From Podarcis cretensis (lineage: Eukaryota), in contig OX638149.1 in assembly GCA_951804945.1 (NCBI GenBank), positions 106,082,001 to 106,146,000 of the forward strand: a stretch of DNA of 64,000 bases, in the 5' to 3' direction. The position numbers were made by a program, and so were the translations under genes. Shown in pieces: positions 33,978 through 62,605 of this stretch; positions within the stretch are counted from its first letter, which is position 1, and every line of letters begins with the position of its first letter. Under the pieces are notes generated by a model. It had not been told where the DNA came from and made no database searches. It saw only the letters and a program-made list of their open reading frames with translations.

Positions 33978-34577
33978 CCCTCCATAGGTAATTGACCAAT
34001 TTTTGAGTTAGTCACTGTTTCTCAGCCTAACCTACCTTACAGGGTTGTTGGGATAAATTAGACAAAGCCAATTTCGCCTCTCTGTGCAACTTGGAAGAAG
34101 AGTTGGATGGGTGTGGAGCTGTCCCATCTACCCCCAGCCACACAATGCATCCGTCTTCCATAACACGGTGCATCCCAGATGTTGTCAGACTGCAACTCCC
34201 ATTGACCTCAGCCAGCATGGCCAATAGTGAGAGATGATGGGAGTTGTAGTCCAGCAGCTTCAGGAGTGCACCAGGCTGGGGGAGACTGCACTAAGCAGTT
34301 GGTGGTTGCTGAAGTTCCCAAACTCACTCATTTGCCTGAGCATTTTTAGGCAGACAGTCCTTGTTGCTGTTTCCCTCAGCTTCGCAGTTCCTAACACCCG
34401 CCCCGACCCCAAACTGGCAAGCTGCGTTTCTCTTATTGTCCTCTTCCTCTCCCATCCCGTCAGTCAGAAAAAAAACCCTGGCTATCCCCATCGTTGTCAC
34501 ACAAAGATTAGTCCAGAAAGACACCATACTGTTCCTCCCCCCCCCCCCCAATTGGTCATGACAATTTCCACACTTAC

Positions 34578-34682
34578 ATCACTGATTTGCTTGTTGACTT
34601 TCGTCGTCCTCAGGTGTTCCGGAGTATCCACAATCGATGTAAACTTGTCCTTCTGCTTTTCATACAGTTGTTTGTATTTGTA
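34578..34682 (-). CDS. NEB: NEB exon YKYKQLYEKQKDKFTSIVDTPEHLRTTKVNKQISD
   Basis: 105 bp, CAG/GTAAGT. Confidence 0.97.
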
Positions 34683-35285
34683 CTGTGGAATTTTTTTTTT
34701 TAAAAAAAGCAGCAGTGAATGGTGGGGAATGACAGCAAATCAACAACAACACCCCACCACAAATGCACATTTTAAGAAGAGTCCTAGCCTTAGCCTGCCT
34801 GTTCCAGCAGCTGTCATAGAAGTCAACCGAAACTGTGTACGTGGGGGGAGCCAAGCCCACACGATGGAAATGCCGGAGTTAAGCTTGCTTTTGGTTACGC
34901 TGACTTCTAAACAGGTCAAGTGTGGGGCAGTGGCTGGAGCACTAGATTTGGACATGGGAGCTTGTATCTAAACACCCTTCAGCTATGTGCTTCCAGGGTT
35001 GGCCTTTGGCAAGTCATCATCTTTAACTTATCCCACGGACTTGATGCGAGGATAAAAATGGGATAATCCTTTGCATCATCCTTCCCTGGGCCGGAAGCAA
35101 ACACAACCAATAAAGCAACTAAACTAGCAGGGTTTGCCGCTAGTGGATAAAACCCCAAACTCTACGATCGCACTAAGAAATCAAAGGAGCCACTTAGCCG
35201 AATAAGAAGAGTGGGTGAGTAAGCATTTAAAAAATGGGTTTAAGAAGCGTTCCCCCCCCCCCAGTCAAGCCCACAAAGTCTACTG

Positions 35286-41986: not shown

Positions 41987-42128
41987 AGGAAAGGGGGAGG
42001 TAAAGGAGTCTGAAGTAGTGGGGAGAGAGAATAACCAGTGCCCCATAGTATATATAAATAAGGTACATCTATTGTATTTTACAGTTATCAAAACCAGCAT
42101 ATTACTCAGGGATATGCATATATATATC

Positions 42129-42950
42129 TGTCAGGGGCTCAGGAGCAGAGGCACAGGGAAGATGGGAGATGGAGAGCGAGGGGGAGGAATCCGAGGGGAG
42201 CGTAGGAGGAAACAGTGGTCCGAGGGATTCCATGAGCCTCTCCAGCGAATCGGAAGATTCACAGAAGGGAGCGCCAGTGGCCAGGGGCAGGGGGGTCCCA
42301 AGGGGAACGCCCCAGGAGCAAGGGGGCAGCAGGGACTCCCAGAGCAGCAGTTGGAAATCAGGACCAGCTTCCCCACCAGAGCAGAGTGGGGGGGAAGAGT
42401 CCCAGGCATCGGGGCCAGTGCTTCCCCCACCAGGGAGAGAAGACGAGGCAGAGCTGACCACGCCTCCCTCGGAGAGTCGTAAAACGGAGGGGAGGTCAGA
42501 TCTGGCCAGTGTCACGGAAGAGGGAAGCAGTGATAGAAGTAGTGTAACGGTTAGGAGAAAGGTCACTGGGTTGGCGCGAGAAGCAAGTTCAAATGTACAG
42601 GAGCGCGGGACAGCAGAGAGTGAGGATTGGGAACCGGGTCCTAAAGCACGCCGGAGGCAGGGGGAGGAGCTCAGCGACTCAGCTTCGGAGGAGTCCAGAA
42701 AGGGCAATGCACCAGAGGGCAGGAGGACCCAGAGGAGGAGAGAGCAGCGCAAAAGGTGGAGCAGGGCTAGGATCTTAAACTGGTGCGGAAGGGGAGGTGA
42801 TTCAGACGGGACTTCGCCTATCTAGAGTCTAGACGTAGGGTTGCACGCTCTGGCTTTGAAATGGAAATTATACTTCAATAAAGACTTTTATACATAATAC
42901 CAGCCTGGCGTTGGTCCTCTGTGAGCTGGGACCTAGAGGCAGCCCTGACA
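42129..42950 (+). mobile_element. Solo LTR (LTR retrotransposon/ERV), 822 bp
   Basis: TG...CA ends with inverted termini TGTCAGGG/CCCTGACA, 5-bp TSD ATATC (42124-42128, 42951-42955), AATAAA at 42877-42882, GC-rich against AT-rich flanks. Confidence 0.85.
42169..42825 (+). CDS. Putative LTR-encoded 218-aa S/E/G/R-rich protein of unknown function
   Basis: Uninterrupted ORF, ATG in GAGATGG context, stop 52 bp before AATAAA; coding status unproven. Confidence 0.4.
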   Translation: MESEGEESEGSVGGNSGPRDSMSLSSESEDSQKGAPVARGRGVPRGTPQEQGGSRDSQSSSWKSGPASPPEQSGGEESQASGPVLPPPGREDEAELTTPPSESRKTEGRSDLASVTEEGSSDRSSVTVRRKVTGLAREASSNVQERGTAESEDWEPGPKARRRQGEELSDSASEESRKGNAPEGRRTQRRREQRKRWSRARILNWCGRGGDSDGTSPI

Positions 42951-43027
42951 ATATCCAATATACATACTTATATATATATATATATATCCAGTATACATAC
43001 TTATGTGTATATATCCAATATACATAC

Positions 43028-43132
43028 TTTGCTGATATCATCAGTGACCTTGCGGTGATACACAATATCCAAGGCATCTTTCACTGTGTGGTATTTACCC
43101 TTGGCTTTCTCAAATGTTTCTTTGTAGCGCAG
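43028..43132 (-). CDS. NEB: NEB exon LRYKETFEKAKGKYHTVKDALDIVYHRKVTDDISK
   Basis: 105 bp, CAG/GTATGT. Confidence 0.97.
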
Positions 43133-44244
43133 CTGATAAAAACAAAATAAAACAAAAAAGTGCGAAGGCATCAGTCTTAAAATGTAGCAAACATTATTTT
43201 CACATTTTCCTCAGAGGTTGTAATAGACAGGTAGAAAAAGCAGACCATCAAGTCCGCTTTATGCATATTATAAAGCAATCCTAGCTTACTCCATGGTGCT
43301 CCTTGTAAATGTAAATCCTACTCCCCATTTATGTATAGCTTTCATTTATTTAACTTTCTATTATAACCAGAGTTTTGCATATTCTCCCGTCTATTTCAAG
43401 ACAAGAGTCCAGATCAAGAAACCATATTATCTATCTCCCCCCCTCTCCCCAATTTCTTCATTCTTTCTCTGCTGCCAACACAATTATACTCAAAAGTATC
43501 CATGTGGACAGAAAGGGTTGCATCCAGCTGAAACATGCTCAGAGCAGACCCACTGAAACCAGCGAACATGACTAAAGTCCATTGGTTTTAGTGAGTCTAC
43601 TCTGAGTATGTTTTAGCTGGATAAAACCCAAGAAGCCAGATTCAACTAACCTAGTGCAAGGACTCCCACCAGTTCAATGGGGCTTTCCCCCTCCCCTTGC
43701 ATGCCCCCCCTCTCCTAAATCTGCCTTGGAGCATCGAGAGAACCCACAGCCTAGCGCCCAGGAGGAGGAGAGAAGAGACTGAACAAATTAGTATGATGTT
43801 GATTTTTACCCAAGCAATCTTGTGTCAAAACAGATTTATATAGATTTTTTATGTATTATTTGTTTTATGCTAGTATATAAGAATTCACAGGCAATGAGAA
43901 ATAGACTCCAATGTCAGACCAAAGAAACTTGATCTTATGTGCAGTAGGCTCACTCCTCTGTGCCACTGCTTCTCAGGAAGAACTCCGTCACAACTGTTAT
44001 AGAACTATGAATAGTTGTCTAATGGCTCCTGACTCTTTTGATCCCTTTTCCATATTAAAAAAAAAAATGCATCATGAGTATATAAGCCATACAGAGCTAG
44101 AGTATAATCCAAATAAGTAAATGATCTGGAAGAATTCTCACTGGTTTCAGGTTCAGTTCACAGACCTTGCCTGAACATTACTCTACATTCAGATCTAGAC
44201 GACATAAAAAAACCCAAACCATCCCATTTTCATCGGATACTTAC

Positions 44245-44349: not shown

Positions 44350-44743
44350 CTAAATTAAGCAGGGGGAATGGAAGAAAAAATAAGTACACCAAGGTGCTCG
44401 TGCGATACAGCATTAACTGCATGCACCTGGGCACTTAAAAAGACACTCTGATGTATGAGTTAACTAAAGTAAATTTATTCATCATGCCAACGATTTGTTT
44501 TTCCTTCCAATAAAGTCAGCTAGAGGCCTGTGGCTGGTATATTCACTGGCAAATTGCAAAGCATACCACCCTAATCTGTAGACAATCTCCCTGCCATTTC
44601 TATGTGTGCCCTTCCCTCCTCTGTGATGCTTGCCTAAATCAGCCTTCTCCAATAAGGTGCCATCCAGCTGTTTGGGGCTACAGCTCTCATCAGCCCCAGA
44701 CAGCATGGCCAGCTGTCAAGGATGATGGGAACTGTAATCCAAT

Positions 44744-45072
44744 CAGGGGCAGAGGAAGGGGGGTGCTGTGGGGACAGTCCACCCCAAGTGTCACCACTGG
44801 GGGGGTGACAAAATGCCAGGCAGCACTCACCGCAGGGCCTACAGTGCGCCCAAGCCATGTGTCTCTCCTGGAGTGAGCTTGAGCGCCCACAGGCTCTGCG
44901 CTGCCCCAAATGGTTTGCCCATTGCCTCCCCCTCAGCTGTAGGGCAGCTGAGTGGGGTGAGGCAGGCAGACTCCTCAGAGGCCCCACGGAGCATCCTGCC
45001 CCAGCTGGCCCCGCCCCCGGGGGCAGGGCACACGCGCTGCCCCAAACGCCCAATCGGCTTGCTCCACCGCTG
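44744..45072. mobile_element. GC-rich non-autonomous hAT element nested in a palindromic MITE
   Basis: 8-bp TSD AATCCAAT at 44736 and 45073; imperfect TIRs CAGGGGCAGAG / CTCCACCGCTG. Confidence 0.82.
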
Positions 45073-45366
45073 AATCCAATTACATGTGCCAGATGACTTG
45101 CCCCAAACGCCACCCCCGGAAATGAACAGTACAGAAGAAACCAATACCTAAACAGGCAAAAAGTAAACGAATAAAAACAAAGCTAGATTGTGGCTTAACA
45201 CGTATGAATAGCATATTTAATAAAGATTCTGTAAAACAGTTTTGATAGACTGCATTGAATGTGTTTGCCAAACTCATTGTCTAGTCTAGACTTTAATGGG
45301 CTGAAGTGTGCAGTCTGTTTGCCATAGTAATAAAAAGAAGAGAAGGAAAGGTGCTCCCAGTCTTAC

Positions 45367-61700: not shown

Positions 61701-61789
61701 CTGTAGGTAGACATGATTAGATTATCATAAATAACAGTAACAGGAAATGAATAGGATGCTGCCACAAATGTGTGAAAATTGCATCTTAC

Positions 61790-61894
61790 CTTATCAATCA
61801 GGTTCTGAGCGTTCTTCACTTTCCGATGCTCCACTGAATCTAAGGGAATCCAGCCACAGCCGCGGATCCATTCCAGATCAGATTTATAAATATT
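61790..61894 (-). CDS. NEB: NEB exon NIYKSDLEWIRGCGWIPLDSVEHRKVKNAQNLIDK
   Basis: 105 bp, CAG/GTAAGA; WIRGCGW marker. Confidence 0.97.
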
Positions 61895-62046
61895 CTGTAC
61901 ATATTAAAAAAGTTGAAGAATATTATTCACACCTATGCAGACAAAAGGACAAGCTGAGCCTTGATTTCCCTTCCCAGGCAATTGCTCTTGGGTATACCAA
62001 TATCAAACTCTTAAACTGGTGCGATCTGATTGCAAAAATCACTTAC

Positions 62047-62358
62047 ATCGCTTTGAAGGTCATATGCTTTCTTTGCCTGGATGCAGTCATTCTGATCAGG
62101 GTGGCAAGTCCATTCATGAAGGTAATGGCGATACGGAATTTCACTGACAACATGCTGGCAGTCTCTGGCTGCAATGACAGACAGTATATCTGGAGGTATA
62201 TGAATTTTGGACTTGGTTTTGTTATATGCCTGTTTATACAATCTGTCGTTCTGGATCTTGCCGGCATGTTCAAACCACACCAGTTTCGGGTCCTCTCTCA
62301 TATTATTGACACCGACGTAGTGACCTCTTTGGTGGACATAGTCTGCCTTGTATTTCAG
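62047..62358 (-). CDS. NEB: NEB three-module exon LKYKADYVHQRGHYVGVNNMREDPKLVWFEHAGKIQND...HEWTCHPDQNDCIQAKKAYDLQSD
   Basis: 312 bp, CAG/GTAAGT. Confidence 0.97.
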
Positions 62359-62605
62359 CTGAAATGGGAAAACACAGGTTCTTTAAATATCTGCACTGGA
62401 TCTTTCCTAATCCTAACTCTCTGGGTTATCCTTATGATTTCATGAAAGCATATCTGCTTTGTTTACTTGGTGGTCTTCCATCTCTGGGAATAGCATGCAA
62501 GAGTTTTCTTTAAAAGAAGATGAACCACTGAAACGAAAGATATGAAGGATGGGCTCTTTGATAGCGACAGAAGTCTGTGTGATTTTAAAGCTAAAGAGTG
62601 TTTAC

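Follow-up and report, generated by a model that had tools for sequence, protein, structure and literature searches.

Here we show that the long open reading frame filling a solo long terminal repeat (LTR) of the lizard Podarcis cretensis is real and coding but, as judged from its sequence relationships, is not an accessory gene: it is almost certainly the end of the element's own Pol polyprotein, within a long C-terminal tail of integrase encoded across the boundary into the 3' LTR. Taken as a whole, we consider it probable that the frame is the end of Pol, with a tail likely serving nuclear import or target-site tethering, and that the solo copy is likely silent. The solo copy itself is ordinary; the interest lies in the LTR-coded integrase tail and in a telomere-inserting sister family, termed family T. 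From an annotation standpoint, the Pol-tail identity accounts for an intact ORF of 200-230 codons in thousands of solo LTRs, and is a warning for annotators.

The window, a stretch of 64,000 nt on C1 of a 1.51-Gb genome, contains the solo LTR at 42129..42950 on the plus strand. It is 822 bp long, reads TGTCAGGG...CCCTGACA, and is flanked by the target-site duplication (TSD) ATATC on the left (42124..42128) and on the right (42951..42955). An LTR search of the genome returned 3909 candidates, 40 of which were scored, and 14 of these, at 97-100% identity, belong to the same young subfamily A as the solo copy. A previous sequence-only reading of this DNA had described the element, its TSD, an ORF of 218 codons (42169..42825, plus strand), a TATA-like CTTAAA and an AATAAA after the ORF, all of which are present as placed. 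The CTTAAA (42774..42779, plus strand) lies 25 nt ahead of the predicted transcription start, with CTTAAAC found in 110 of 113 LTR extracts, and the polyadenylation signal (42877..42882, plus strand) lies 51 nt past the ORF stop. Unnoticed in that reading, the sense frame is open already from LTR base 2 (42130), giving 231 codons. The antisense frame of 216 codons reported to overlap the ORF also exists (42102..42752, minus strand, TTG start) and shares third codon positions with the sense frame. As a gene it was rejected: it is broken in 13/13 cluster-2 LTRs, its first Met mostly lies ~35 aa before its end, and a frame of at least 200 codons stays open in 40% of synonymous re-draws, a pattern that marks it as a dispensable by-product of the sense frame.

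The whole clan numbers 6,220 LTR ends in the genome, counted by an exact 3'-end pattern, and the 113 LTR extracts form eight clusters up to 20% apart (two mis-cut duplicates were dropped, and later counts are on 111). Of the LTR types that the ends and TSD had been said to fit (Gypsy, BEL, Copia or ERVL), the element is Gypsy, and paired copies flank gag-pol. They include L031 (6,681 bp, TSD AACGT), the paired copy on which the assignment of the solo LTR is based; although broken at several places, it has gag, RT, RNase H and integrase, followed by an SH3 of Tf2 type and a weak chromodomain. As expected of Ty3/Gypsy elements, paired LTRs and a TSD surround gag and pol in PR-RT-RH-IN order, and Pol continues through SH3 and chromodomain into a tail of ~390 aa. 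Gag and Pol are read in two different frames that overlap, and at 10 of 13 loci the shared stretch contains a G-GGA-AAC/T motif; we take this motif to resemble the -1 frameshift slippery site of PEG10, and by that analogy Pol would be produced by -1 frameshifting. The Pfam Chromo model finds L031 at E=0.0013 with 19.1 bits vs a cut-off of 25.1 and has no match in family T Pol, and the related proteins P0023 and P0024 are named 'Chromo domain-containing'; the chromodomain is best described, from these matches, as present but degenerate. The LTR ends match the Sushi motifs TGTYANR and CNTNACA, as these are given in the available excerpt of PMC3601003. By domain order, self-priming and LTR ends, the clan is classed as a Tf1/sushi-type Ty3/Gypsy chromovirus. 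A tree built from copies in this genome, proteins of Podarcis and a single one of Rhineura was poorly resolved and grouped family T with P. muralis P0007 (82/100).

Continuity with Pol is seen in natural copies. Among the 30 found with their internal 3' region, eight preserve one frame that leaves the chromodomain, crosses polypurine tract and LTR and closes at the ORF stop; in a further 14 the integrase/chromodomain frame enters the LTR before breaking, in seven it breaks earlier, and one was left unplaced. A single frame of 1545-1591 codons spans PR to tail at three of 13 full-length loci. The last 231 codons and stop of Pol occupy 42130..42825 (plus strand), and the ATG of the 218-codon ORF is an internal Met of the tail. 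Across subfamilies the LTR-coded part measures 210-232 aa (232 of the 389 aa past the chromodomain in subfamily B) and, as the Pol frame crosses the polypurine tract and U3, this part is copied into every LTR. The same tail is fused to the C-terminus of integrase in the P. muralis UniRef proteins P0001 and P0002. Ten matches came out of 1.84 billion representatives searched with an HMM, the named ones from Podarcis; the more distant Pols P0025 and P0026 have an acidic tail across a G.DV junction and a basic run with LL.W at the end, and the junction motif suggests that their tails, too, are LTR-located. In Podarcis lilfordi, the NCBI 'hypothetical proteins' P0011, P0012 and P0021 are fragments of the Pol tail and probably represent gene calls on LTR copies.

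In subfamily B the tail is acidic overall and basic over its last 60 residues, in agreement with the basic, NLS-like C-terminus described from the solo copy. The basic tip (42721..42786, plus strand) ends in a W..AR.L.WC motif, includes a helix predicted with low confidence and overlaps the TATA-like box; it is a candidate NLS or targeting motif. Searches of Pfam, PDB sequences and the ESM Atlas gave no match to the tail. AlphaFold2 modelled chromodomain and tail with low confidence, at a mean pLDDT of 38.5 and pTM of 0.16, which is too poor for comparing folds; the tail is coil apart from a single helix at the tip, consistent with a disordered extension of integrase. On balance, we hold a role of the tail as an NLS or tether to be slightly more likely than not.

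The position of the frame within the LTR has consequences for its expression. In full-length copies, the 11 nt after the 5' LTR, the primer-binding site (PBS), are complementary to LTR positions 676-686 (window 42804..42814, plus strand), 145-148 nt from the LTR end, which marks a self-priming site and predicted RNA 5' end. A first-guess compensatory PBS variant had no match in the genome; the variant predicted from the changed 11-mer as read from the LTRs themselves occurs 72 times, and in 17 of 20 variant elements the PBS changes together with the 11-mer of its own LTR, the site not being found in the remaining three. Folding of the whole R-U5-PBS region was no better than that of shuffles (z=-0.41), although the helix between 5' end and PBS did form. 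A PBS complementary to the RNA 5' end, without a tRNA, is as found in the Tf1/sushi group, whose self-priming is described in PMC6317226. The predicted RNA start is thus near LTR position 676, only 22 nt ahead of where the ORF stop codon ends, and a solo LTR should therefore not express the ORF. In the life cycle we propose, the full-length RNA would start there and prime itself, U3 would be transcribed solely as the 3' copy of that RNA, and the tail would be translated as part of integrase. One stretch of DNA would then be promoter, self-primer and protein-coding sequence at once.

The LTR-coded frame evolves as a protein. Pairwise NG86 comparison of seven single natural copies (21 pairs) gave dN/dS of 0.18-0.45, with bootstrap intervals below 1 in 20 pairs, whereas the other two sense frames gave 0.89-1.5 and contain stops; changes at codon positions 1/2/3 numbered 30/34/61 in one example, a clear third-position bias. 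Between subfamily B and family T the tail shows dN/dS of 0.33 at dS ~1.2. Selection does not stop at the LTR boundary but is also seen in the internal tail, and the tail as a whole (0.3-0.55; LTR-coded part 0.38-0.41, middle segment 0.51-0.55) is far less constrained than the enzymes and chromodomain (0.03-0.34). Length differences between subfamilies keep the register (231, 232 and 210 codons), and 95 of 111 LTRs keep the sense frame open up to and including the terminal motif, a count biased towards intact frames because copies were chosen as best hits. The basic tip overlaps the TATA-like box and self-priming site, so that its conservation may be partly at the DNA level; islands of invariant residues away from the promoter survive synonymous saturation. 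These patterns indicate a tail under purifying selection, and the prediction that the ORF is protein-coding is thereby upheld.

Several other explanations of the frame were weighed. The caution that GC- and purine-rich composition lengthens chance ORFs was well placed: 3.9% of 3000 composition-matched (Markov-1) shuffles reach 218 stop-free codons, so length by itself cannot exclude an accident of LTR composition. That explanation is refuted, and left with practically no probability, by continuity with the Pol frame, by conservation, and by dN/dS well below 1 in seven subfamily representatives and family T. More serious is the proposal of the sequence-only reading, a separate U3-encoded accessory protein comparable to MMTV sag or HIV nef, made from spliced or internal-promoter RNA and spread by each solo LTR. 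Both sag and nef are separate genes overlapping U3 with their own mRNAs, and a coding frame overlapping U3 is what the clan shares with them; here, however, the frame is a C-terminal continuation of Pol and lacks a conserved start codon of its own. The ORF ATG has a good context and is retained in nearly all subfamily A, B and C copies read, but its position holds Thr in P0001 and P0002, Leu in P. muralis P0003 and Thr in family T, and in the solo copy a strong-context out-of-frame ATG lies 7 nt upstream (42162). A perfect-looking donor, GTAAGT, directly follows the 5' LTR, but PBS pairing constrains its sequence, which changes to GTAAGC in variant subfamilies; contigs from four presumed RNA runs showed no joint from this donor to the tail, which does not imply absence. 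The predicted start, at ~42804, lies ~635 nt downstream of the ATG, which counts against expression from solo LTRs, and selection reaching into the internal tail is likewise at odds with a protein confined to the LTR. The tail could be part of Pol and also be made alone, yet a separate accessory protein now seems improbable to us.

A passive spacer that binds nothing, left behind when the stop codon of Pol moved by drift into U3 and kept only by selection against stops and frameshifts and for promoter DNA, deserves somewhat more weight but is still unlikely. It would explain why in-frame indels of at least 20 residues are tolerated, why the middle segment is the least constrained, and why no database match was found; it does not sit well with invariant islands at synonymous saturation off the promoter, with the third-position bias, or with the recurrence of an acidic tail and basic tip in distant Pols. 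We therefore retain the end of Pol, under selection as protein, as the identity of the frame.

Older subfamilies show a skewed chromosomal placement. Of the junctions between 5' LTR and PBS, 29 of 72 (all variant-PBS matches; 2.5% expected) and 53 of 88 (the C1-C3 subset of 376 matches; 1.5% expected) fall in the last 1 Mb of a chromosome. Most solo LTRs are dispersed, with 6 of 61 in these terminal regions, and the accumulation there of older full-length copies may accordingly be retention rather than targeting. These subfamilies are dense in the terminal few hundred kb, with some copies nested in one another: the first 260 kb of C1 hold 21 LTR matches, vs ~3 per Mb further inward, and similar pile-ups occur at C1:141.0-141.43 Mb, C3:126.3-126.7 Mb and L032. 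Self-nesting was rejected as the cause of the tip clusters, only three of 21 tip flanks being family sequence. At C1:27340-74813, 27 kb inside the contig end and behind older element copies, telomeric arrays switch strand orientation, which may reflect an end fusion, an inversion or an assembly join.

Family T, found by reading contig ends, has a 784-bp LTR and, at six of 13 loci examined, one Pol frame of 1550-1556 codons from PR to a tail whose end lies within the LTR; its identity to subfamily B is 90% in RT and 51% in the LTR-coded tail. Both LTRs were identical in 10/10 interior copies checked, which makes the family very young. Its 729 LTR ends comprise 364 5' LTRs and 365 insertions; 223 insertions (~60%) run directly into telomeric repeat (TTAGGG)n, the other 142 ends having no adjoining perfect telomeric repeat. 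Both orientations occur in telomeric arrays (L155-L173 and L205-L241), with 107 insertions into the C-rich strand and ~116 into the G-rich strand, the latter almost all at GTTAG; this pentamer precedes 104 LTR starts, and the TSD is GTTAG/CTAAC. Family T sequence or junctions are found at 27 of 38 chromosome-scale ends, as well as in interstitial arrays (C2:4.62 Mb; C3:121.8-121.95 Mb) and many unplaced contigs, while non-T telomeric junctions number two among ~5,500 non-T LTR ends. Perfect TTAGGG trimers cover ~0.385 Mb, and the resulting density ratio of ~6,000 should be read as an upper estimate, given the under-assembly of telomeres. In a weight matrix built on 73 non-telomeric sites, the GTTAG register is preferred 17-fold, with the other five registers at 0.1 or less; local sequence preference so accounts for the register but not for the size of the enrichment. 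An internally deleted variant (LTR spacing ~3.53 kb vs 5.75 kb; L183/L184, C2:4619631-4623944) is seen at several sites and has a haplotype of its own, which suggests a non-autonomous derivative being mobilised.

Amplification, telomere turnover or assembly artefact could also produce telomeric copies, the older subfamilies having since lost theirs. The under-assembly of telomeres, the ~40% of family T insertions located elsewhere, and the fact that turnover would remove old insertions all speak for this, as do two of 14 neighbouring pairs in five arrays that share an LTR haplotype. The remaining 12 pairs differ, however, and nine of 12 array haplotypes are also found in interior copies, a pattern that favours independent insertions. 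Insertion in both orientations, GTTAG on both sides and the occupation of interstitial arrays, where T is far commoner than non-T, also count against this account, as does a local preference of only ~17-fold for one register of six. Contigs from three other samples of the same organism contain telomeric loose ends at the 3' end of the T LTR, one of them also at the 5' end, a further point against it; in a second organism T-like LTRs were present, with no telomeric loose end among the matches listed. We judge an origin by amplification, turnover or artefact to be doubtful, and insertion into the repeats remains our preferred account.

What directs these insertions is a more tentative matter. 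We propose that the conserved motif islands of the acidic tail and the basic tip would provide nuclear import and anchor the integration complex on chromatin close to the ends of chromosomes; in family T the tail would tether to TTAGGG-bound chromatin, and the catalytic core would set only the local register. Telomere targeting by the tail is a putative function. Alternatively, targeting could be due to the chromodomain or to the accessibility of host chromatin. The motif [FYH]xLxP mediates binding to TRFH domains, and such a motif was considered and rejected as the basis of targeting, since HALFP, the single [FYHW]xLxP that the tails have in common, is in the chromodomain of all subfamilies. 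No motif separating family T from the non-telomeric subfamilies was found in the compared tails, which keeps chromodomain or chromatin state as rivals for the telomere bias. That lacertid sushi-type chromoviruses independently acquired a CRM-like LTR-encoded tail, which in a currently active family T tethers to shelterin-coated TTAGGG, is a possibility we put somewhat below even. If true, family T would be the first vertebrate LTR retrotransposon targeting telomere repeats, and lizard chromosome ends would be mosaics of repeat and intact retroelement. With homologous tails and sharply different telomere occupancy, family T and its relatives make vertebrate integrase targeting directly testable. 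Telomeres broken every few kb by 6.5-kb promoter-bearing elements also bear on length measurement, transcription, end protection and gap-free assembly in lizards.

From a comparative standpoint, the clan combines features of several known systems. With the Tf1/sushi group (sushi-ichi, Tf1, Tcn1) it shares PR-RT-RH-IN order, a Tf2-like SH3, a self-priming PBS and a 5-bp TSD, with a chromodomain-like segment after integrase that is degenerate (E=0.0013, under the Pfam cut-off), but it adds ~390 aa past this segment, over half of them LTR-encoded; the fungal-type matches P0014, P0015 and P0019, unlike clan Pol, stop shortly past the chromodomain. The nearest precedent is the LTR-encoded CR motif of plant centromeric CRM elements. 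For CRM group A, the consulted portions of PMC3059260 and PMC6317226 describe a polyprotein frame running into the 3' LTR, with a putative targeting domain there (CR motif, CHDCR). The clan resembles them in this frame and in a skewed chromosomal location, but it self-primes where CRM uses tRNA-Met, keeps a chromodomain beside its tail instead of a CR motif in its place, has no CR-type Pfam match, and is an animal element enriched at chromosome ends and TTAGGG whereas CRM is centromeric. By these comparisons it operates in a CRM-like way without belonging to that group, and the CRM layout, with a targeting-type tail coded in the 3' LTR, is now seen in an animal chromovirus. In yeast Ty5 and Ty1, short motifs and an NLS in the poorly conserved integrase C-terminus direct integration, in Ty5 to telomeric heterochromatin (excerpts of PMC4700185 and PMC7459421). 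The integrase C-terminus as targeting region is likewise what we propose for the clan; Ty5 and Ty1, the latter with a bipartite NLS, differ in being Copia elements whose targeting domains are not LTR-encoded and whose host partners are named (Sir4, AC40), and Ty5 enters silent chromatin near telomeres, whereas family T enters the repeat itself. Insertion into telomere repeats is described for non-LTR elements of insects and fungi in the parts available of PMC9693754, PMC4700185, PMC9498494 and PMC12857005. Like TRAS/SART, HeT-A/TART/TAHRE and FoTeR, family T is interspersed with telomeric repeats at chromosome ends, and it inserts into the repeat at a fixed register; in contrast to them it is a vertebrate LTR element, inserts in both orientations with a 5-bp TSD, is not exclusive to telomeres and does not use non-LTR target-primed insertion. 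The literature searched, a body outside Repbase and Dfam, held no report of a Pol tail in the LTR or of telomere-repeat insertion for any LTR element of vertebrates; those two collections may already have an entry for the family.

The solo LTR lies in an intron after a nebulin-like exon, antisense to the host gene. An NEB exon 77 bp away had been proposed: the distance and nebulin likeness hold for the minus-strand exon at 43028..43135, which ends at 43028, but its Pfam Nebulin match is below the cut-off (E=0.16), and the identity of the neighbouring gene as NEB is likely, though not proven. Between LTR and exon (42951-43027), three short direct copies hold the minus-strand donor-like AAGTATGTAT, and may provide alternative splice donors. 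The minus strand of the LTR (42129-42800) is pyrimidine-rich, intronic in the host-gene sense and contains a long open frame, so that its exonisation into nebulin-like mRNA is conceivable. Elsewhere in the window, a GC-rich island at 44640-45130 within the AT-rich intron is probably another interspersed repeat, and two other plus-strand stop-free stretches, of 246 codons at 34231-34968 and 234 codons at 61741-62442, are without Pfam match.
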